Source of the DNA: Escherichia coli | GTDB taxonomy: Bacteria > Pseudomonadota > Gammaproteobacteria > Enterobacterales > Enterobacteriaceae | Strand: one strand, 5' to 3' | DNA length: 64,000 nt | NCBI RefSeq assembly: GCF_041886205.1 | Contig: NZ_CP169029.1 | Shown here: positions 642-42,647 of the stretch, one piece after another | How the letters are laid out: every line of letters starts with the position of its first letter | Position numbering within the stretch: the first letter of the stretch is position 1 | Notes under the pieces: model-generated | The model's database searches: none | What the model was told of the DNA's origin: nothing | The model's input: only the letters and a program-made list of their open reading frames with translations | Translations under genes and position numbers: made by a program

Positions 642-992
<351 letters not shown>

Positions 993-1021
993 GATTTCGC
1001 TTAAGCGACATCCTGTTAAGA

Positions 1022-1051
1022 AGGGCTGGCCAATTGGCTGGCCCTTTTTTT
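1022..1051. terminator. Rho-independent terminator after rplS (GC hairpin around a ggccaattggcc core, then T-run); sits between convergent rplS and yfiB
   Basis: Inverted repeat agggctggcc...ggctggccct followed by ttttttt, read directly. Confidence 0.6.
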
Positions 1052-1068
1052 ATCTGTTTGCTCGTGTT

Positions 1069-1551
1069 TTAAGGGGTAGTAATCACCACTGCGACGCGGC
1101 GGTTCTCGGCGCGGCCCTGGGCGGTCTTGTTACTGGCTATGGGATATTTTTTTCCTAAACCCTGTGTGGTGAGATTGCTGCGCGGAATTTGTCCACCCTT
1201 AGCCCATGCATCGGCCACGACATTCGCCCGTTTCAATGATAAGCCTTCGTTGTAACTGTCTTCAACATAGTTATCGGTGTGTCCATCCATACGGGCATGT
1301 GTTAGCCCTGTCGAGGCCAATTTGGCTGCCATGGTTTGGATCTGTTGCTGGCTTTCCGGGAGCAATTTGTAGTCATTTTTGGCGAACAGAATGGCATCTG
1401 ATAAGCCCAGCGACCAGTCGCCGGCGGATTCAGTAAATCCATAAGATTGCATAGCGGCGACTTGCTCAGGAGTAAACTTTCCCTGAGGGGACTGGCAGCC
1501 AGTCAGTATTAGTGAGGTGAAAATCAGGGGTGCTACCAGGTGCTTTATCAT
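1069..1551 (-). CDS. yfiB: OmpA-like outer-membrane lipoprotein YfiB (Pal-like, lipobox LTGC)
   Basis: 160-aa ORF with signal peptide and lipobox cysteine, C-terminal OmpA-like peptidoglycan-binding region; last gene of the yfiR-dgcN-yfiB cluster. Confidence 0.88.
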   Translation of the reverse strand: MIKHLVAPLIFTSLILTGCQSPQGKFTPEQVAAMQSYGFTESAGDWSLGLSDAILFAKNDYKLLPESQQQIQTMAAKLASTGLTHARMDGHTDNYVEDSYNEGLSLKRANVVADAWAKGGQIPRSNLTTQGLGKKYPIASNKTAQGRAENRRVAVVITTP

Positions 1552-1566
1552 ATCGATATATCCTTG

Positions 1567-2793
1567 TTATCTCACCAGCTTTTCGGCACGCTGGTGTTTG
1601 GCCTGATACATATTGTGATCGGCAAGCTCTTGTAATTTTTCCGCAGAGGAGTGCTCAATGGTCATCGCGTAACCAATGCTTAATGTCATGGTGGTCTGAT
1701 AGCCATTATGAAGATCAAACGGGAGATTAAAGATTTGTGTCAGTGCTGAACATATCTGCTGCACTTCAGATTCCGACTGTACATCATAGAGCACCATAGC
1801 GAATTCATCGCCGCCTATGCGGTATGCTTTATGTCGCAGCCCGCCAAATTCAGCTAACCGTTTTGCGATTTCAATCAAGACTCGATCGCCCGTCGCATGA
1901 CCCCAGGTATCATTGATATATTTGAAATTATCGCCATCAAGAAATAGTAACGCCGACGTTTTTCGGGCATCGGAACTGTTCATCAACGTGTTGATACCGC
2001 TACGAAACGCTGCGCGGTTAGCCAGCCCGGTTAATGGGTCATGTAGTGCGGTACGTAGAAGCTGCGCATTTTTGGCCTGTAAACGAAGCTGCCACTCTTC
2101 CATTTCATCCAGCAGACTGTTGAAGTCGAGAGCGAATCGGTGAAACTCAGCGATACGTTCTTCCGAAACTCGTCGGGAAAAATTGCGGTTGGAACGCACA
2201 TCATGTACGACATCGGTGATATTTTTCAGCGCTTCCACCAGGCCATTGTGCAAATGGCGGGTGAGGGTAATTGCGATGCCTGATGCCAGCAGAATACAAC
2301 CGGTCAGTACGGCGAGCGAAAACCAGATAAAATGGCTGATTGAACTGTCGCGAGCGGTTAAGCGTACTTCGCCAATGGTTTCACCATTGTGACGAATCGG
2401 CTGAATGATGGGGGCAGGGAAGAGCCAGTGGCTTATGAAATTGCTGAAAGTATCGCCTGGATCCTTACGGGTGTAATGCCAGGATGCCAGAATATTTTGC
2501 TGCTTATCACGCACTTCTGCAGTTGAAAATTGGCCTTGCTGGCCCAGCGCTGCCAGCGTTTCAGTTGCTGCAGGGCCATCGGCAAAAACGACCGCTGCTT
2601 CCAGACTGTAAGTCATTGTTGCTGCTGTCAGTGCCAGGTTTTTTTGCGCGTACTGTTTCAGGGTCAGCACCGAGGTCACGGAAAGCAGCAACCAGATCAG
2701 CATCATAGTGATAAATATGCTGGTCATACTGATGTTGCGTAATGCTCTTTTAAACGTGGGGCGCTTATTAAGAGAATTATCGTTATCCATCAT
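1567..2793 (-). CDS. dgcN: Inner-membrane diguanylate cyclase DgcN/YfiN (periplasmic sensor, HAMP, GGDEF)
   Basis: 408-aa ORF with N-terminal TM segments and GGDEF motif ([10 protein letters not shown]); 11-nt overlap with yfiR upstream. Confidence 0.9.
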
Positions 2794-3301
2794 TTTTCTT
2801 CCGTGCGAGCATTAAGACATCCGGGTTGACCTTTACACCGCTACGCGATAAGGCATGCAGGTTTACGGCAAATCTGACGTCATTATTGTGGATGATCAGA
2901 CAAAAGGCGCTACCAATAATGCACTCGGTATTTTGTTCGGCAATTAATAATAACGCCTTTGACGGATATTGTTCGGTTAATTCCATCTGGAATGTCGGTG
3001 ACTCGTTGCCAAAATAAAAACCATTGCAGCCTGAAATCATCGCCTCTTGTTGAGTGTGAATGATGACAGGCAGATAAGGCAAAGATGTCGCGGCATTCTC
3101 TTGTAGGGCGGTACTAAAACGTGAAGATGAAAAGATACATAACTTTGGTGGCCCTGATAGCGCAGGCCAGCGGGTGTAACTGACAATACCGGAAACCATC
3201 ATACGCACGTTTTTCGCAACGTCAGAAGGCTCCTGAGCGAGTATTGGTGCTCCCGTCAGCAGGAGAATCAGAAGTAAGAACAGTCGGTGAGAAAAACGCA
3301 T
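2783..3301 (-). CDS. yfiR: Periplasmic repressor of DgcN, YfiR
   Basis: 172-aa ORF with signal peptide, first gene of the yfiRNB operon. Confidence 0.86.
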
Positions 3302-3450
3302 TCAGGGATCCCCACCATCTTCGCTCGAAATGCATCGATATTTTTTCAGAATACTCATTAAAATATCATTTTTTCATGCGATAGTCATCAATGTGAGAAA
3401 TAAAACACAATGAGTAAAATTTTATGTTTAATTTATTTGTGGGGTTTTAA

Positions 3451-3834
3451 TTAATTTAATCGTATTGTGCTGGCATTTTCATCAGCCCCTTTTTGCCATA
3501 CTTCATGCAATTGGCTGGCATTTTCAACATTGTTGCAGCTGGCAGGAAAGCTTTTACCGGAAAGTCCTCGGGCATAAGTAAAATCGGTCTGGCAAGTTTT
3601 CTTTTGTCCTTCGGCATATCCTTTAAGGTATAGACCGCGATCCGCCTGTGAATCGCTAAATGCATCGTCATCTTTTATGGCGCTGCCCGATATCGCATCT
3701 TCCATACCAACATCATACCAGTCGGTGCTGGTCAAGGTTGGCGCGTGAGTATAAGGATCAATCTGACATCCGCTAACCAGTAAAGCCAACAAGGGGGCGA
3801 TAAATTTTTTCATCATTTCTTTCTCCTTTTTCAA
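3451..3834 (-). CDS. yfiL: Small lipoprotein YfiL (true start may be an internal Met)
   Basis: ORF with signal peptide and lipobox (LVSGC); position between yfiR and aroF. Confidence 0.7.
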   Translation of the reverse strand: MKKEKEMMKKFIAPLLALLVSGCQIDPYTHAPTLTSTDWYDVGMEDAISGSAIKDDDAFSDSQADRGLYLKGYAEGQKKTCQTDFTYARGLSGKSFPASCNNVENASQLHEVWQKGADENASTIRLN

Positions 3835-7450: not shown

Positions 7451-7486
7451 AATAAAAAAGGCCCCCCGATTTGGGAGGCCTTATTG
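7451..7486 (-). terminator. pheA attenuator terminator hairpin (minus strand)
   Basis: On minus strand ggcctcccaaatcggggggcc followed by ttttttatt, between pheL stop and pheA start. Confidence 0.7.
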
Positions 7487-7528
7487 TTCGTCTTCGCATT
7501 CTGTTTCACACGACGAAACGCCTCCCAT

Positions 7529-7576
7529 TCAGGGGAAGGTAAAAAAGAATGCGAAGAAAAACGGTGTGTGTTTCAT
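7529..7576 (-). CDS. pheL: pheA leader peptide (15 aa, 7 Phe codons), translated here as MKHTPFFFAFFFTFP
   Basis: Manual translation of the minus strand; not in the ORF track because it is below the length cut-off. Confidence 0.85.
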   Translation of the reverse strand: MKHTPFFFAFFFTFP

Positions 7577-7631
7577 GTTTGTTTCCTTAAGTGACTTTAG
7601 TACAGTACCCGTACTGTTTTCACGCTGTCAA

Positions 7632-10872: not shown

Positions 10873-10934
10873 CCTAAAGAATCAAGACGATCCGGTACGC
10901 GTGATTTTCTTTTCACATTAATCTGGTCAATAAC

Positions 10935-10964
10935 CTTGAATAATTGAGGGATGACCTCATTTAA
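10935..10964 (+). promoter_or_regulatory. Sigma-32 heat-shock promoter of clpB
   Basis: cttgaa ... cctcatttaa, matching the CTTGAA-N13-15-CCCCATNT class, about 40-65 nt upstream of clpB. Confidence 0.6.
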
Positions 10965-11001
10965 TCTCCAGTAGCAACTTTGATCCGTTATGGGAGGAGT
11001 T

Positions 11002-13575
11002 ATGCGTCTGGATCGTCTTACTAATAAATTCCAGCTTGCTCTTGCCGATGCCCAATCACTTGCACTCGGGCACGACAACCAATTTATCGAACCACTTCAT
11101 TTAATGAGCGCCCTGCTGAATCAGGAAGGGGGTTCGGTTAGTCCTTTATTAACATCCGCTGGCATAAATGCTGGCCAGTTGCGCACAGATATCAATCAGG
11201 CATTAAATCGTTTACCGCAGGTTGAAGGTACTGGTGGTGATGTCCAGCCATCACAGGATCTGGTGCGCGTTCTTAATCTTTGCGACAAGCTGGCGCAAAA
11301 ACGTGGTGATAACTTTATCTCGTCAGAACTGTTCGTTCTGGCGGCACTTGAGTCTCGCGGCACGCTGGCCGACATCCTGAAAGCAGCAGGGGCGACCACC
11401 GCCAACATTACTCAAGCGATTGAACAAATGCGTGGAGGTGAAAGCGTGAACGATCAAGGTGCTGAAGACCAACGTCAGGCTTTGAAAAAATATACCATCG
11501 ACCTTACCGAACGAGCCGAACAGGGCAAACTCGATCCGGTGATTGGTCGTGATGAAGAAATTCGCCGTACCATTCAGGTGCTGCAACGTCGTACTAAAAA
11601 TAACCCGGTACTGATTGGTGAACCCGGCGTCGGTAAAACTGCCATCGTTGAAGGTCTGGCGCAGCGTATTATCAACGGCGAAGTGCCGGAAGGATTGAAA
11701 GGCCGCCGCGTGCTGGCGCTGGATATGGGCGCGCTGGTGGCTGGGGCGAAATATCGCGGTGAGTTTGAAGAACGTTTAAAAGGCGTGCTTAACGATCTTG
11801 CCAAACAGGAAGGCAACGTCATCCTGTTTATCGACGAATTACATACCATGGTCGGCGCGGGTAAAGCTGATGGCGCAATGGACGCCGGAAACATGCTGAA
11901 ACCGGCGCTGGCGCGTGGTGAATTGCACTGCGTAGGTGCCACGACGCTTGACGAATATCGCCAGTACATTGAAAAAGATGCTGCGCTGGAACGTCGTTTC
12001 CAGAAAGTGTTTGTTGCCGAGCCTTCTGTTGAAGATACCATTGCGATTCTGCGTGGCCTGAAAGAACGTTACGAATTGCACCACCATGTGCAAATTACTG
12101 ACCCGGCAATTGTTGCAGCGGCGACGTTGTCTCATCGCTACATTGCTGACCGTCAGCTGCCGGATAAAGCCATCGACCTGATCGATGAAGCAGCATCCAG
12201 CATTCGTATGCAGATTGACTCAAAACCAGAAGAACTCGACCGACTCGATCGTCGTATCATCCAGCTCAAACTGGAACAACAGGCGTTAATGAAAGAGTCT
12301 GATGAAGCCAGTAAAAAACGCCTGGATATGCTCAACGAAGAACTGAGCGACAAAGAACGTCAGTACTCCGAGTTAGAAGAAGAGTGGAAAGCAGAGAAAG
12401 CATCGCTTTCTGGTACGCAGACCATTAAAGCGGAACTGGAACAGGCGAAAATCGCTATTGAACAGGCTCGCCGTGTGGGGGACCTGGCGCGGATGTCTGA
12501 ACTGCAATACGGCAAAATCCCGGAACTGGAAAAGCAACTGGAAGCCGCAACGCAGCTCGAAGGCAAAACTATGCGTCTGTTGCGTAATAAAGTGACCGAT
12601 GCCGAAATTGCTGAAGTGCTGGCGCGTTGGACTGGGATTCCGGTTTCTCGCATGATGGAAAGCGAGCGCGAAAAACTGCTGCGTATGGAGCAAGAACTGC
12701 ACCATCGCGTTATTGGTCAGAACGAAGCGGTTGATGCGGTATCTAACGCTATTCGTCGTAGCCGTGCGGGGCTGGCGGATCCAAATCGCCCGATTGGTTC
12801 ATTCCTGTTCCTCGGCCCAACGGGTGTGGGGAAAACAGAGCTTTGTAAGGCGCTGGCGAACTTTATGTTTGATAGCGACGAGGCGATGGTCCGTATCGAT
12901 ATGTCCGAGTTTATGGAGAAACACTCGGTGTCTCGTTTGGTTGGTGCGCCTCCGGGATATGTCGGTTATGAAGAAGGTGGCTACCTGACCGAAGCGGTGC
13001 GTCGTCGTCCGTATTCCGTCATCCTGCTGGATGAAGTGGAAAAAGCGCATCCGGATGTCTTCAACATTCTGTTGCAGGTACTGGATGATGGGCGTCTGAC
13101 TGACGGGCAGGGGAGAACGGTCGACTTCCGTAATACGGTTGTCATTATGACCTCTAACCTCGGTTCCGATTTGATTCAGGAACGCTTCGGTGAACTGGAT
13201 TATGCGCACATGAAAGAGCTGGTGCTCGGTGTGGTAAGCCATAACTTCCGTCCGGAATTCATTAACCGTATCGATGAAGTGGTGGTTTTCCATCCGCTGG
13301 GTGAACAGCACATTGCGTCGATTGCGCAGATTCAGTTGAAACGTCTGTACAAACGTCTGGAAGAACGTGGTTATGAAATCCACATTTCTGACGAGGCGCT
13401 GAAACTGCTGAGCGAGAACGGTTACGATCCGGTCTATGGTGCACGTCCTCTGAAACGTGCAATTCAGCAGCAGATCGAAAACCCGCTGGCACAGCAAATA
13501 CTGTCTGGTGAATTGGTTCCGGGTAAAGTGATTCGCCTGGAAGTTAATGAAGACCGGATTGTCGCCGTCCAGTAA
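11002..13575 (+). CDS. clpB: Chaperone/disaggregase ClpB (two AAA+ modules)
   Basis: 857-aa product [18 protein letters not shown]...; two Walker A motifs ([16 protein letters not shown]); RBS gggaggag. ORF track starts 12 nt upstream at an in-frame ATG. Confidence 0.95.
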
Positions 13576-14018: not shown

Positions 14019-15560
<1,542 letters not shown>

Positions 15561-15645
15561 CCTTAAAGAAGCGTACTTTGCAGTGCTCACACAGATTGTC
15601 TGATAGAAAGTGAAAAGCAAGGCGTCTTGCGAAGCAGACTGATAC

Positions 15646-15721
15646 GTCCCCTTCGTCTAGAGGCCCAGGACACCGCCCTTTCACGGCGGTAACAGGGGTT
15701 CGAATCCCCTAGGGGACGCCA
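15646..15721 (+). tRNA. gltW: tRNA-Glu (anticodon UUC) in the 16S-23S spacer
   Basis: GTCCCCTTCGTCTAGAGGCCCAGGACACCGCCCTTTCACGGCGG...GGGGACGCCA; anticodon loop CTTTCAC; 76 nt including CCA. Confidence 0.95.
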
Positions 15722-15914
15722 CTTGCTGGTTTGTGAGTGAAAGTCACCTGCCTTAATATCTCAAAACTCATCTTCGGGTGATGTTTGAGATATTTGCTCT
15801 TTAAAAATCTGGATCAAGCTGAAAATTGAAACACTGAACAACGAAAGTTGTTCGTGAGTCTCTCAAATTTTCGCAACACGATGATGAATCGCAAGAAACA
15901 TCTTCGGGTTGTGA

Positions 15915-18818
<2,904 letters not shown>

Positions 18819-18911
18819 ACAACGCCGAAGATGTTTTGGCGGATTGAGAGAAGATTTTCAGCCTGATACAGATTAAATCAGAACGCAGAAGCGGTCTGAT
18901 AAAACAGAATT

Positions 18912-19031
18912 TGCCTGGCGGCCTTAGCGCGGTGGTCCCACCTGACCCCATGCCGAACTCAGAAGTGAAACGCCGTAGCGCCGATGGTAGTGTGGGGTCT
19001 CCCCATGCGAGAGTAGGGAACTGCCAGGCAT
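18912..19031 (+). rRNA. rrfG: 5S ribosomal RNA
   Basis: TGCCTGGCGGCC...GGGAACTGCCAGGCAT, 120 nt. Confidence 0.95.
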
Positions 19032-30746: not shown

Positions 30747-30844
30747 GCCGGATGCGGCGTGAACGCCTTATCCGGCCTACAAGATCGTGCAAATTCAATA
30801 TATTGCATGAGCCACGTAGGCCTGATAAGCGTAGCGCATCAGGC
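30747..30844. repeat. BIME: two inverted REP elements
   Basis: gccggatgcggcgtgaacgccttatccggcctac (30747..30780) and inverted copy gtaggcctgataagcgtagcgcatcaggc (30816..30844). Confidence 0.65.
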
Positions 30845-36373: not shown

Positions 36374-37329
36374 TGAAGCAACTTTGGTTTGCCATGTCAT
36401 TAGTGACAGGTAGCCTGTTATTCTCTGCTAACGCCTCGGCCACTCCCGCGTCCGGGGCGTTATTACAGCAGATGAACCTGGCCAGTCAGTCACTGAATTA
36501 CGAGCTGTCATTCATCAGCATCAATAAACAGGGTGTTGAGTCTCTGCGTTATCGACATGCACGCCTCGATAACCGTCCTCTTGCACAATTGTTGCAAATG
36601 GATGGCCCGCGCCGGGAAGTGGTACAGCGCGGCAATGAAATCAGCTATTTTGAACCGGGACTTGAACCGTTCACGCTTAATGGCGATTACATTGTTGATT
36701 CTCTGCCATCGCTCATCTATACCGATTTCAAACGCCTTTCTCCTTACTACGACTTCATCTCCGTCGGGCGCACGCGTATTGCTGATCGTCTTTGCGAAGT
36801 CATTCGCGTGGTTGCCCGAGATGGTACACGCTACAGCTACATCGTGTGGATGGACACTGAATCGAAATTACCGATGAGGGTTGATCTCCTTGATCGCGAT
36901 GGTGAAACGCTGGAACAATTTCGCGTGATTGCTTTTAACGTCAATCAGGATATCAGCAGCAGTATGCAGACGTTGGCGAAGGCAAATTTGCCGCCGTTGC
37001 TTTCTGTTCCTGTAGGTGAAAAAGCTAAATTCAGCTGGACGCCAACCTGGTTGCCACAGGGTTTTAGCGAAGTTTCCAGTAGTCGACGTCCGCTACCGAC
37101 GATGGACAACATGCCTATCGAATCACGTCTCTATTCCGACGGATTATTCAGCTTCTCGGTAAACGTTAACCGCGCTACGCCATCGAGCACCGATCAGATG
37201 TTGCGCACCGGACGCAGAACCGTCAGTACAAGCGTACGTGATAACGCCGAAATCACCATTGTCGGTGAACTGCCGCCGCAAACGGCGAAACGCATTGCCG
37301 AGAATATTAAGTTCGGGGCAGCGCAATGA
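36373..37329 (+). CDS. rseB: Sigma-E regulatory protein RseB (periplasmic)
   Basis: 318-aa ORF with signal peptide; coupled to rseA (1-nt overlap). Confidence 0.93.
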   Translation: MKQLWFAMSLVTGSLLFSANASATPASGALLQQMNLASQSLNYELSFISINKQGVESLRYRHARLDNRPLAQLLQMDGPRREVVQRGNEISYFEPGLEPFTLNGDYIVDSLPSLIYTDFKRLSPYYDFISVGRTRIADRLCEVIRVVARDGTRYSYIVWMDTESKLPMRVDLLDRDGETLEQFRVIAFNVNQDISSSMQTLAKANLPPLLSVPVGEKAKFSWTPTWLPQGFSEVSSSRRPLPTMDNMPIESRLYSDGLFSFSVNVNRATPSSTDQMLRTGRRTVSTSVRDNAEITIVGELPPQTAKRIAENIKFGAAQ

Positions 37330-37805
37330 TCAAAGAGTGGGCTACCGTCGTCTCCTGGCAAAACGGGCAGGCGCTGGTCAGTTGTGATGTTAAAGCCTCA
37401 TGCAGCAGCTGCGCTTCACGCGCCGGTTGCGGTAGCCGCGTGTTGAATAAACTTGGCCCGCAAACCACGCATACCATTGTCGTACCCTGTGATGAGCCGT
37501 TAGTGCCGGGGCAAAAAGTGGAATTGGGGATCGCCGAAGGCAGCCTGCTTAGCTCCGCATTACTGGTTTATATGTCGCCGCTGGTGGGATTATTCCTCAT
37601 CGCTTCGCTATTTCAGCTACTCTTTGCTTCTGACGTCGCAGCATTATGTGGTGCGGTCCTCGGCGGTATTGGCGGGTTCCTGATTGCGCGTGGCTACTCG
37701 CGTAAGTTTGCTGCCCGGGCAGAATGGCAACCGATCATCTTAAGCGTGGCATTGCCGCCTGGCCTTGTGCGATTTGAAACATCTTCGGAAGACGCGAGCC
37801 AGTGA
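37326..37805 (+). CDS. rseC: Sigma-E regulatory protein RseC (SoxR-reducing system family)
   Basis: 159-aa ORF with Cys-rich N-terminus and two TM segments; 4-nt overlap with rseB. Confidence 0.9.
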   Translation: MIKEWATVVSWQNGQALVSCDVKASCSSCASRAGCGSRVLNKLGPQTTHTIVVPCDEPLVPGQKVELGIAEGSLLSSALLVYMSPLVGLFLIASLFQLLFASDVAALCGAVLGGIGGFLIARGYSRKFAARAEWQPIILSVALPPGLVRFETSSEDASQ

Positions 37806-38002
37806 TTTCACTGGCTTTGTTGCATTTTGCATAACAAATGCGAGGACGTTTCCAGATACCACAATCCATACGGTATGAACATTTCCTCGCCTCAATGTTG
37901 TAGTGTAGAATGCGGCGTTTCTATTAATACAGACGTTAAGCTCAGAACAGCGACTTCTAAAAGCCTGGTTAACCGGGCATTAAGGCACAATAATCATACT
38001 TT

Positions 38003-39802
<1,800 letters not shown>

Positions 39803-40838: not shown

Positions 40839-40937
40839 TTATTTATGAGATAAATCTCCCGTGGCTAACGACATCCCCCGTCGTTGTGTATAGAATATTC
40901 CCCCGAAGTTTAAGGTTGGCACCTCCAGGTTGCCACG

Positions 40938-41031
40938 GCACACGAAACAGCGTTGGTCCCCATATACCGCTAAACTGAAACTGCAGCGAAGCAGTTAGCA
41001 GAGCCATGTATATCAGGTCTGTTTCGTGTGC
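40938..41031 (+). promoter_or_regulatory. rnc leader: 13-bp perfect inverted repeat able to form a long-range stem, consistent with the RNase III autoregulatory cleavage site
   Basis: gcacacgaaacag (40938..40950) and ctgtttcgtgtgc (41019..41031) read directly. Confidence 0.5.
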
Positions 41032-41034
41032 TGA

Positions 41035-42647
<1,613 letters not shown>

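Follow-up and report, generated by a model that had tools for sequence, protein, structure and literature searches.

The closest described systems and the identity of the locus

Tripartite envelope-to-c-di-GMP signalling has been described in Pseudomonas aeruginosa, where YfiBNR (PA1119, PA1120, PA1121) has the same three-protein architecture and the same yfiR-yfiN-yfiB order as the locus reported here, and in Escherichia coli K-12. Experiments on the P. aeruginosa and K-12 orthologues point to a scheme in which YfiR represses YfiN (DgcN) and YfiB relieves this repression by sequestering YfiR. Carried over from the K-12, Salmonella and P. aeruginosa orthologues (PMC3375315, PMC4887326, PMC4992967, PMC10127611), the mechanism would run as follows: with YfiR oxidised and bound to the periplasmic domain of dimeric DgcN, the cyclase stays inactive; DgcN would be freed by reductive stress, which misfolds YfiR, or alternatively when activated, peptidoglycan-anchored YfiB sequesters YfiR at the outer membrane. 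The signal would then pass through the second transmembrane segment and a HAMP-like linker to align the two GGDEF domains, which would convert two GTP into c-di-GMP. The expected outputs in E. coli are cellulose production and inhibition of motility; under envelope stress DgcN would relocate to the Z ring and division would halt, and gluconeogenic carbon sources would bring GTP depletion and growth arrest. Because E. coli YfiB is dispensable for the stress-induced midcell relocation of YfiN (PMC4992967), its contribution there is supported less firmly than in P. aeruginosa.

The window analysed (64,000 nucleotides) is E. coli core chromosome, running from trmD to yphG. Within it, three minus-strand open reading frames of 172, 408 and 160 aa (2783-3301, 1567-2793 and 1069-1551) form what is almost certainly the chromosomal yfiR-dgcN(yfiN)-yfiB operon, a core-genome tripartite envelope-to-c-di-GMP signalling system, and nothing contradicts this identification. 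The yfiR and dgcN frames overlap by 11 nt (2783-2793, ATGATGGATAA) and 15 nt (1552-1566) lie between the dgcN stop and the yfiB ATG; the three tightly packed genes are probably translationally coupled. Pfam returns DUF4154 for YfiR, CHASE8 plus GGDEF for DgcN and OmpA for YfiB, so that the YfiR, GGDEF and OmpA domains named in the original prediction were recovered and a HAMP domain in the 408-aa frame was not. Scores against NCBIfam equivalogs clear their cut-offs for DgcN (501 against 325 bits), YfiR (165 against 85) and YfiB (344 and 227 against 155 and 128). On sequence grounds, a chance origin of frames and domain matches together should be out of the question, the agreement lying far beyond chance. 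The gene identities, order, strand, overlap and gap originally proposed all hold against the open reading frame list, the sequence and the domain models, and the compartments predicted for the products (periplasmic YfiR, inner-membrane DgcN, outer-membrane YfiB) agree with transmembrane segments, lipobox and homology.

Strain wlxctx60 (E. coli) is 100% identical over the 2.7-kb segment tested (window 900-3600), and its RefSeq annotation has the same three coding sequences at the same coordinates; the nearest relative, LHM10-1, is 99.9% identical over that segment. The locus is found in 5425/5426 complete E. coli genomes, chromosomal in all, and is therefore an already known system; for so widespread and well characterised a core operon, the value of the identification to annotation is small. 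We rejected chance open reading frames and mobile DNA as explanations, as all matches are chromosomal and K-12 synteny is kept; the window carries no mobile element annotation.

Sequence around the operon was also surveyed. Where rplS and yfiB converge, a hairpin (1018-1049; terminator scan and folding) lies between the two genes; on the plus strand its 14 pairs run into a stretch of T, making it a canonical rplS terminator. Read on the minus strand it folds at -17.2 kcal/mol (z=-2.4), weaker for the yfi transcript and with a poor U-tract, and yfiB transcription may end there too. The AT-rich yfiL-yfiR intergenic region (3302-3450, minus strand, 149 nt) presumably holds the yfiR promoter; a sigma-70 consensus scan of its minus strand gave no match of at least 9/12. 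Two SNPs in this region, at 3353 and 3421, are absent from LHM10-1, 6EVA and K-12. An Rfam scan returned no RNA family in or adjoining the operon.

The features described below all lie on the minus strand. The yfiR gene (2783-3301) encodes the periplasmic repressor of DgcN, a 172-aa member of the DUF4154/YfiR-HmsC family by open reading frame, Pfam (PF13689, E=1.2e-30) and NCBIfam (sequest_YfiR, 164.6 bits, cut-off 85), and is homologous to P. aeruginosa YfiR of known crystal structure (E~1e-15). As to the signal peptide, for which the original prediction suggested a check, a hydrophobic segment spans residues 3-25 without a lipobox, and inspection places a likely signal peptide at residues 1-22 (3236-3301), with cleavage after residue 22, Ala at -1, before QE. 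Four cysteines (Cys55, Cys92, Cys127 and Cys134) are present, conserved cysteines being what makes YfiR redox-sensitive, and the protein is predicted to be exported and disulfide-bonded. A single change, D149H, separates it from K-12 YfiR.

DgcN and the linker between membrane and cyclase

The dgcN gene (yfiN; 1567-2793) encodes a 408-aa inner-membrane diguanylate cyclase matching the NCBIfam DgcN/YfiN equivalog. Kyte-Doolittle profiles (19-aa window) place a first transmembrane segment at about residues 20-46 (2656-2736, maximum 2.26) and a second at about residues 150-179 (2257-2346, maximum 2.15). In a full-length AF2 model built from a 23-sequence alignment (mean pLDDT 69.6, pTM 0.43), these fall inside helices 14-69 and 149-199, respectively. 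Between them lies a periplasmic CHASE8 sensor domain, residues 45-146 (2356-2661; PF17152, E=1.3e-33, model covered in full, 1-102/102), for which the model gives an alpha/beta fold (pLDDT about 70-87). The literature knows it as the 'PAS-like' domain that binds YfiR; the original prediction left it out.

The GGDEF catalytic domain occupies residues 249-403 (1585-2049; PF00990, E=1.5e-42, 145 bits) and aligns over its whole length with 7a7e, the GGDEF structure of P. aeruginosa TpbB/YfiN (E=1.9e-28). Its active-site motif, originally called intact, is so, with GGDEF at residues 327-331 (1801-1815) and Ile326 before it (RIGGDEF). In 23 orthologues, residues D286, N294, D303, GGDEF 327-331, K399 and R402 do not vary, and all are kept here; the metal-, GTP- and guanine-binding residues that mark active-class diguanylate cyclases are thus in place, and DgcN is predicted to belong to that class. 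At the primary I-site position, five residues upstream of GGDEF, DgcN has GLRH and RxxD is absent. The RxxD I-site, through which product inhibition acts, is common among diguanylate cyclases without being universal and is a feature of a subclass; its absence is no bar to membership.

Four substitutions distinguish this DgcN from that of K-12 (N273S, L326I, H365Y and A382S), and one could suppose that together they impair catalysis and leave the module a degenerate sensor. L326I does lie right beside the active-site motif and is by far the less common allele (RIGGDEF in 96 of 5426 E. coli genomes, against RLGGDEF in 5214), and among four sequences compared A382S is common only to this DgcN and that of 6EVA, whose dgcN is a pseudogene. 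Yet all four substitutions are conservative, positions 273, 326, 365 and 382 lie outside the columns invariant in 23 orthologues while the catalytic invariants are kept, the GGDEF Pfam score is high, and the very presence of RIGGDEF in 96 complete genomes counts against a lesion. We regard catalytic impairment as highly improbable and treat DgcN as a predicted active cyclase.

The segment joining the second transmembrane helix to the cyclase (residues 180-245 with its signalling helix, 2059-2256) had been labelled HAMP in the phrase 'HAMP-GGDEF'; the GGDEF half of that label stands, the HAMP half finds no Pfam match, and the linker is better called HAMP-like. A HAMP label for DgcN derives from the literature (Malone 2012, Kim & Harshey 2016) together with weak evidence here. 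Given the silent Pfam HAMP model, we treat the HAMP nature of the linker as putative. It could be argued that the linker is instead a divergent coiled-coil or signalling helix and not a true HAMP four-helix bundle, which would make 'HAMP-GGDEF' inaccurate for the enterobacterial protein. Several searches point that way: with full DgcN or the isolated linker as query, Pfam HAMP is silent at E<=10 and only a spurious Med29 match appears; PF00672 is carried by 0 of the 120 orthologues listed in precomputed annotation; phmmer with linker residues 159-252 against PDB sequences retrieves only chance coiled-coil matches; hhalign, comparing the linker profile with the GlrK/QseE HAMP that Pfam does recognise and that the same window encodes, gives a probability of 0.2%, not significant and uninformative; and AF2 confidence falls below pLDDT 50 over residues 188-221. 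Against this, a linker of about 55 residues straight after the second transmembrane segment fits a HAMP in length and place, and AF2 models a helix up to 199 and a second helix from 212, with 12 residues of break (200-211) between them. A profile of 17 orthologous linkers, searched against the PDB, has as its top match a de novo helical barrel (spurious) and as its second the HAMP of P. aeruginosa Aer2 (3vol, E=0.053, suggestive though not significant), the alignment to which is in register across connector and AS2 (linker N-F-S-R-R-V with G-D-F-S-K-R-V ... L-A-K-D-L-N-S-L-V-D). NCBIfam models of HAMP-bearing proteins, BaeS (E=6e-4), PRK15347 (E=3.8e-4) and LapD, likewise align across the linker. 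P. aeruginosa YfiN is described with a HAMP at this position, and its activating mutations fall at positions equivalent to HAMP signalling mutations of Tsr and NarX (PMC3375315). Weighing these, we think a non-HAMP coiled coil unlikely and retain a HAMP-like linker. In practice, automated checks on enterobacterial DgcN should expect CHASE8 plus GGDEF, the often-repeated 'HAMP' label being one that Pfam does not recover.

YfiB and the G96V substitution

The yfiB gene (1069-1551) encodes a 160-aa OmpA/Pal-like outer-membrane lipoprotein by open reading frame and NCBIfam models (PRK09967, 344 bits, cut-off 155; OMP_LP_YfiB, 227 bits, cut-off 128), and is homologous to P. aeruginosa YfiB of solved structure (E=8e-31). 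A regular-expression match bears out the expected lipobox, L16-T17-G18-C19 (1495-1506) with predicted lipidation at Cys19 and Gln at +2. In homologues the cysteine is kept in 67/69 and Gln20 in 54/69, and the +2 Gln suggests sorting to the outer membrane. In the N-terminal activation segment this YfiB has both F39, which never varies in the family alignment, and W46, which hardly does; F39 corresponds to P. aeruginosa F48, where F48S, like L43P, is an activating mutation. The OmpA-like peptidoglycan-binding domain spans residues 55-151 (1099-1389; PF00691, E=1.2e-17, match 1-98/98).

Three changes separate this YfiB from that of K-12 (V10I, G96V and M118K). Codon 96 (1264-1266) is GTT (Val), not GGT (Gly), and lies in the TDxxG peptidoglycan-binding motif, where it aligns with P. 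aeruginosa G105. Of 69 diverse homologues 67 have Gly at this position and none has Val; Ala is found in one real homologue. The remaining motif residues D93, R108 and N59 (a D/N column in the family), equivalent to P. aeruginosa D102, R117 and N68, are present, as is N101, position 96 alone departing from the pattern. Across 5426 complete E. coli genomes Gly is found in 5201 and Val in 2, and LHM10-1, the nearest relative, has Gly. The other complete Val96 genome is 6EVA, in which Y62* and W297S have left dgcN a pseudogene; the hosts were a Japanese bear for wlxctx60 and a human in Singapore for 6EVA. We considered sequencing error and rejected it, given two independent complete genomes and the exact G96V protein on 178 contigs in public data. 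The operon had originally been called complete, which is correct in that its three frames are whole and needs qualifying for a YfiB with a rare substitution at a near-invariant glycine. Since YfiB passes the equivalog models, its family membership stands, with full function in question through Val96; with the change at a near-invariant Gly, the activating arm may not work in full.

How far G96V matters can be judged partly from P. aeruginosa, where a D102A/G105A 'PG-' peptidoglycan-binding mutant of YfiB is expressed but inactive (PMC3375315) and where affinity for peptidoglycan is coupled to activation (PMC4887326). By analogy, G96V could weaken peptidoglycan binding so that YfiB no longer sequesters YfiR efficiently; the activating arm would be attenuated and DgcN controlled essentially by the redox state of YfiR alone, as in Salmonella without yfiB. 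The equivalence of V96 and G105 by alignment, the conservation of glycine and the rarity of valine in homologues and E. coli genomes alike, the Gly96 of LHM10-1 and the dead dgcN of 6EVA, which fits relaxed selection in the sub-lineage, all speak for attenuation. The P. aeruginosa test, however, was of a double mutant, and the direct ligand contacts in YfiB structural papers are D102, N68 and R117, not G105 (PMC4887326). One real homologue carries Ala at this position, the rest of the motif is whole, and the Val96 allele, spread over those 178 contigs and two such different hosts, is no dead end. We hold attenuation to be a real possibility that falls short of an even chance. Such attenuation refines the identification of the operon and does not replace it.

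Extended to the whole Val96 sub-lineage (wlxctx60, 6EVA and the 178 contigs), a tentative and rather doubtful proposal is that G96V decouples YfiB from the cell wall and silences the envelope-stress input, leaving only redox control through YfiR, with the independent nonsense and missense lesions in dgcN of 6EVA marking ongoing loss of the pathway. Were this true, G96V would do in nature what the 'PG-' mutant does in the laboratory, and would be the opposite of the activating yfi mutations that are selected in cystic-fibrosis P. aeruginosa. What YfiB does is far better understood in P. aeruginosa than in E. coli, and G96V is a ready natural allele for asking if E. coli YfiB needs its hold on peptidoglycan.

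Comparison with known systems

The more distant orthologues are Yersinia HmsCDE and P. fluorescens AwsXRO, likened here by description: both are homologous tripartite sets in which a YfiR-like periplasmic inhibitor is joined by a GGDEF cyclase in the membrane and a lipoprotein of OmpA type, in other genera and with different downstream targets. The Pfam name of DUF4154, 'YfiR/HmsC-like', reflects the first of these, and AwsXRO is given as a synonym in PMC3375315. P. aeruginosa YfiBNR shares about 40% identity or less with the present proteins, and equivalents of its YfiR cysteine pairs are present in YfiR here. It differs in output, which is Pel/Psl small-colony variants as against cellulose, motility, cell-division arrest and GTP depletion in E. 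coli, and in two sequence features: E. coli DgcN is without RxxD, and the present strain has Val at the G105 equivalent. Salmonella enterica YfiRN has the same YfiR-YfiN core, its DgcN orthologue being about 75% identical with the same CHASE8+GGDEF architecture (P0255). Salmonella has no yfiB (PMC4992967), whereas the present window keeps an intact yfiB frame.

E. coli K-12 b2603-b2605 occupies the same site between yfiL and rplS, with the same lengths, 11-nt overlap and 15-nt gap, and its YfiR, DgcN and YfiB are 98-99% identical to the present set at the protein level. K-12 DgcN has the same degenerate GLRH I-site, and K-12 YfiN is described as GLRH-bearing and without functional I-sites (PMC10127611). 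Eight amino-acid differences separate the two strains (YfiR 1, DgcN 4, YfiB 3). G96V occurs in 2/5426 complete genomes and L326I in 96/5426; five of the remaining six are also in LHM10-1, and the sixth, A382S, recurs only in 6EVA among the sequences compared. Set beside K-12, the yfiR-dgcN-yfiB described here is an ordinary, well-studied operon whose sole unusual feature is YfiB G96V.

Gene organisation and genomic setting

The operon is formed by three minus-strand genes, yfiR (2783–3301, 172 aa), dgcN (yfiN; 1567–2793, 408 aa) and yfiB (1069–1551, 160 aa). ORF list and sequence reproduce exactly the coordinates originally predicted, together with the 11-nt yfiR/dgcN overlap (ATGATGGATAA) and the 15-nt spacing from the dgcN stop to the yfiB ATG, and inspection places Shine–Dalgarno-like purine-rich stretches (GGTGGGG, GGAAG and AAGGA) before all three starts. 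A terminator scan with folding locates a hairpin at 1018–1049, between the convergent rplS and yfiB; read on the plus strand it is a canonical terminator, and its minus-strand form is weaker, the U-tract being poor. The gene 149 nt upstream of yfiR, on the same strand, is yfiL (mechanical ORF 3451–3834 from TTG 3834, 127 aa; ATG 3816 in RefSeq and K-12, 121 aa, MMKKFIAPLLALLVSGC..., lipobox present), encoding a DUF2799 lipoprotein. In the yfiL–yfiR spacer (149 nt) the minus strand shows no match of at least 9/12 to the sigma-70 consensus. This presumed yfiR promoter region carries two SNPs (3353 and 3421) absent from LHM10-1 (the nearest relative), strain 6EVA and K-12; on the minus strand, that at 3353 changes GAGCATTCT to GAGTATTCT, making a weak TATTCT −10-like hexamer.

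Domain searches uphold the gene identities: Pfam assigns DUF4154 'YfiR/HmsC-like' to the 172-aa protein (E=1.2e-30), CHASE8 (residues 45–146, E=1.3e-33) and GGDEF (249–403, E=1.5e-42) to the 408-aa protein and OmpA to the 160-aa protein (E=1.2e-17). All NCBIfam equivalog scores lie well over their curated cut-offs (YfiR 165 bits versus 85; DgcN/YfiN 501 versus 325; YfiB 344 versus 155 and 227 versus 128). Window 900–3600 is 100% identical to strain wlxctx60 (Japanese black bear faeces), whose RefSeq annotation names yfiB, dgcN and yfiR at matching positions. Among public E. coli proteins, three of 512–542 aa (P0198, P0199 and P0214) join CHASE8+GGDEF to YfiR (PF13689) or OmpA (PF00691); these apparent YfiR–DgcN or DgcN–YfiB fusions most likely arise from errors of assembly, or from frameshift or read-through where the genes overlap by 11 nt or lie 15 nt apart.

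By megablast with window 900–3600, all but one of the 5426 complete E. coli genomes (5425) have the locus, chromosomal every time. The 64-kb setting was read from the corresponding wlxctx60 stretch as proxy, identity to the window having been compared over 900–3600. This counterpart runs from trmD to yphG, with an rRNA operon, clpB, rpoE-rseABC and purL and no annotated mobile element, and is ordinary core chromosome. The Rfam scan found no family inside or adjoining the operon; matches elsewhere in the window, at the gathering threshold, are every one an expected E. coli element: the Phe leader (7452–7577), RyfD (10883–11021), a complete rRNA operon with tRNA-Glu (14019–19029), the ES036 (CssrF) sRNA (30781–30823), the rseC antisense AsrC (37290–38121), rncO (40905–41119), the shoB antitoxin ohsC (44532–44596) and GlmY (53797–53944).

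The YfiR repressor and DgcN cyclase

YfiR has a hydrophobic N-terminal segment (3–25), four cysteines (55, 92, 127 and 134) and no lipobox. Crystal structures of P. aeruginosa YfiR match it along a 138-residue alignment (E~1e-15), and it differs from K-12 only by D149H. In bovine E. coli XJ5.2 (NZ_CP074354.1), the annotation places an IS1A inside the locus, and yfiR (~window 2783–3301) appears in two pieces, a natural repressor disruption in which DgcN derepression would be expected.

The DgcN hydrophobic segments 20–46 and 150–179 flank CHASE8, and the predicted topology therefore has a cytoplasmic N terminus, a periplasmic sensor, and linker and GGDEF domain in the cytoplasm. The catalytic domain aligns with the P. 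aeruginosa TpbB/YfiN structure 7a7e (E=1.9e-28). The GGDEF motif is intact as predicted, at residues 327–331 (1801–1815), and D286, N294, D303, G327–F331, K399 and R402 are all kept and are invariant across 23 orthologues (65–98% identity). GLRH replaces RxxD at the primary I-site position; K-12 YfiN has the same GLRH and is without functional I-sites (Harshey laboratory, PMC10127611). Differences from K-12 are N273S, L326I, H365Y and A382S. By 30-mer matching in complete E. coli genomes, RIGGDEF is a minority allele (96 versus 5214 with RLGGDEF); L326I is conservative, and position 326 is not invariant among orthologues.

The original prediction described a HAMP–GGDEF protein and named failure to find 'GGDEF/HAMP' as a refutation; Pfam recovers GGDEF but not HAMP, and the sensor domain is CHASE8. 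HAMP gives no match at E<=10 to whole DgcN or the isolated linker between TM2 and GGDEF, PF00672 appears in 0 of the 120 best orthologues by precomputed annotation (all PF17152+PF00990), a phmmer search of PDB sequences with the linker returns nothing, and hhalign against the Pfam-positive GlrK HAMP from the same window is not significant. On the other side, a 17-orthologue linker profile gives a marginal but in-register match to P. aeruginosa Aer2 HAMP (3vol, E=0.053; NFSRRV... against DFSKRV...LAKDLNSLVD), and NCBIfam models of the HAMP-bearing BaeS, PRK15347 and LapD align over the linker. AlphaFold2 models a helix up to 199, a 12-residue break and a helix from 212 (pLDDT there <50), the pattern expected of AS1–connector–AS2. 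The orthologous segment has been treated as HAMP, with activating mutations placed at canonical HAMP positions (PMC3375315, PMC4992967). We conclude that the linker is HAMP-like, a candidate HAMP domain.

YfiB and the Val96 allele

The predicted lipobox and OmpA-like domain of YfiB are both present: L16-T17-G18-C19 is followed by Gln, Cys19 is kept in 67 of 69 diverse homologues, and P. aeruginosa YfiB structures align with the protein along its whole length (E=8e-31). Relative to K-12 it carries V10I, G96V and M118K. The second (GGT to GTT, minus strand, 1264–1266) alters the near-invariant glycine of TDxxG, the peptidoglycan-binding motif; this residue pairs in the HMMER alignment with P. 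aeruginosa G105, inside GHTD102-N-Y-G105. The module is complete as regards its three intact ORFs, but in YfiB a glycine belonging to a functional motif is replaced, a change that is rare.

The 69 YfiB-like lipoproteins, chosen to represent clusters at 50% identity, have Gly at this position in 67 cases, Ala in 2 (1 a garbled sequence) and Val in none. Typed by 30-mers spanning the codon, complete E. coli genomes encode Gly in 5201 (3918 + 1283) and Val in two (wlxctx60 and 6EVA), with ~220 unclassified. LHM10-1 differs from the window at four positions over 2.7 kb, yfiB codon 96 among them. The exact Val96 protein is on 178 recorded contigs, and the allele is real and circulating. Separately, E. 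coli CCUG 73778 and ExPEC XM (extraintestinal) have GTC (Val) for GGC (Gly) at YfiB codon 103 (1243–1245), with a synonymous GAT to GAC at D93, a context found in 1283 genomes.

That G96V weakens the YfiB arm is possible, if doubtful. Glycine 96 is extremely conserved and Val rare there; in P. aeruginosa, yfiB-D102A-G105A, altering 'two critical peptidoglycan-binding residues', is expressed normally and loses attachment and small-colony induction (Malone et al., PMC3375315), and YfiB activation brings 16-fold higher peptidoglycan affinity (Xu et al., PMC4887326). The P. aeruginosa evidence, however, is confined to that double mutant, direct ligand contacts are attributed to D102, N68 and R117 rather than G105 (PMC4887326), and in E. 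coli YfiB is dispensable for YfiN relocation under stress (PMC4992967). The sister genome 6EVA (NZ_CP138428.1), which alone among complete genomes shares Val96 with wlxctx60, has dgcN annotated as a pseudogene (668–1894 of the extracted locus L006, equivalent to window 1567–2793), with Y62* (TAC to TAG) and with W297S, which falls in a conserved stretch, DTWGH. Two independent lesions suggest, from sequence, cyclase decay in the Val96 sub-lineage, and this decay also favours attenuation. Taken furthest, this would mean that the attenuating allele of YfiB arose in nature and that one E. coli sub-lineage has begun to lose the pathway, a reading that is less likely than not.

Relation to known Yfi systems

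What is read here directly is how the genes are organised, the architecture of their domains and the predicted topology, together with the intact catalytic motif, the absent I-site and the altered peptidoglycan-motif residue; orthologues (sources include PMC3375315, PMC4887326, PMC4992967 and PMC10127611) suggest how the parts would work. Oxidised YfiR would bind the DgcN periplasmic domain and repress it, until reductive stress, or activated, peptidoglycan-anchored YfiB sequestering YfiR, frees the cyclase. A conformational change would then travel by way of TM2 and linker to the GGDEF dimer, which would make c-di-GMP, with cellulose production and motility inhibition as probable E. coli outputs. 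Under additional envelope stress DgcN may move to the Z ring and block division, and on gluconeogenic carbon sources a cyclase free of an I-site check could deplete GTP. The original interpretation is supported overall, with two corrections, CHASE8 without a recovered HAMP and the rare YfiB substitution. The yfi module is a well-known system; K-12 has the identical arrangement, yfiL / yfiR-dgcN-yfiB / rplS (b2602–b2606).
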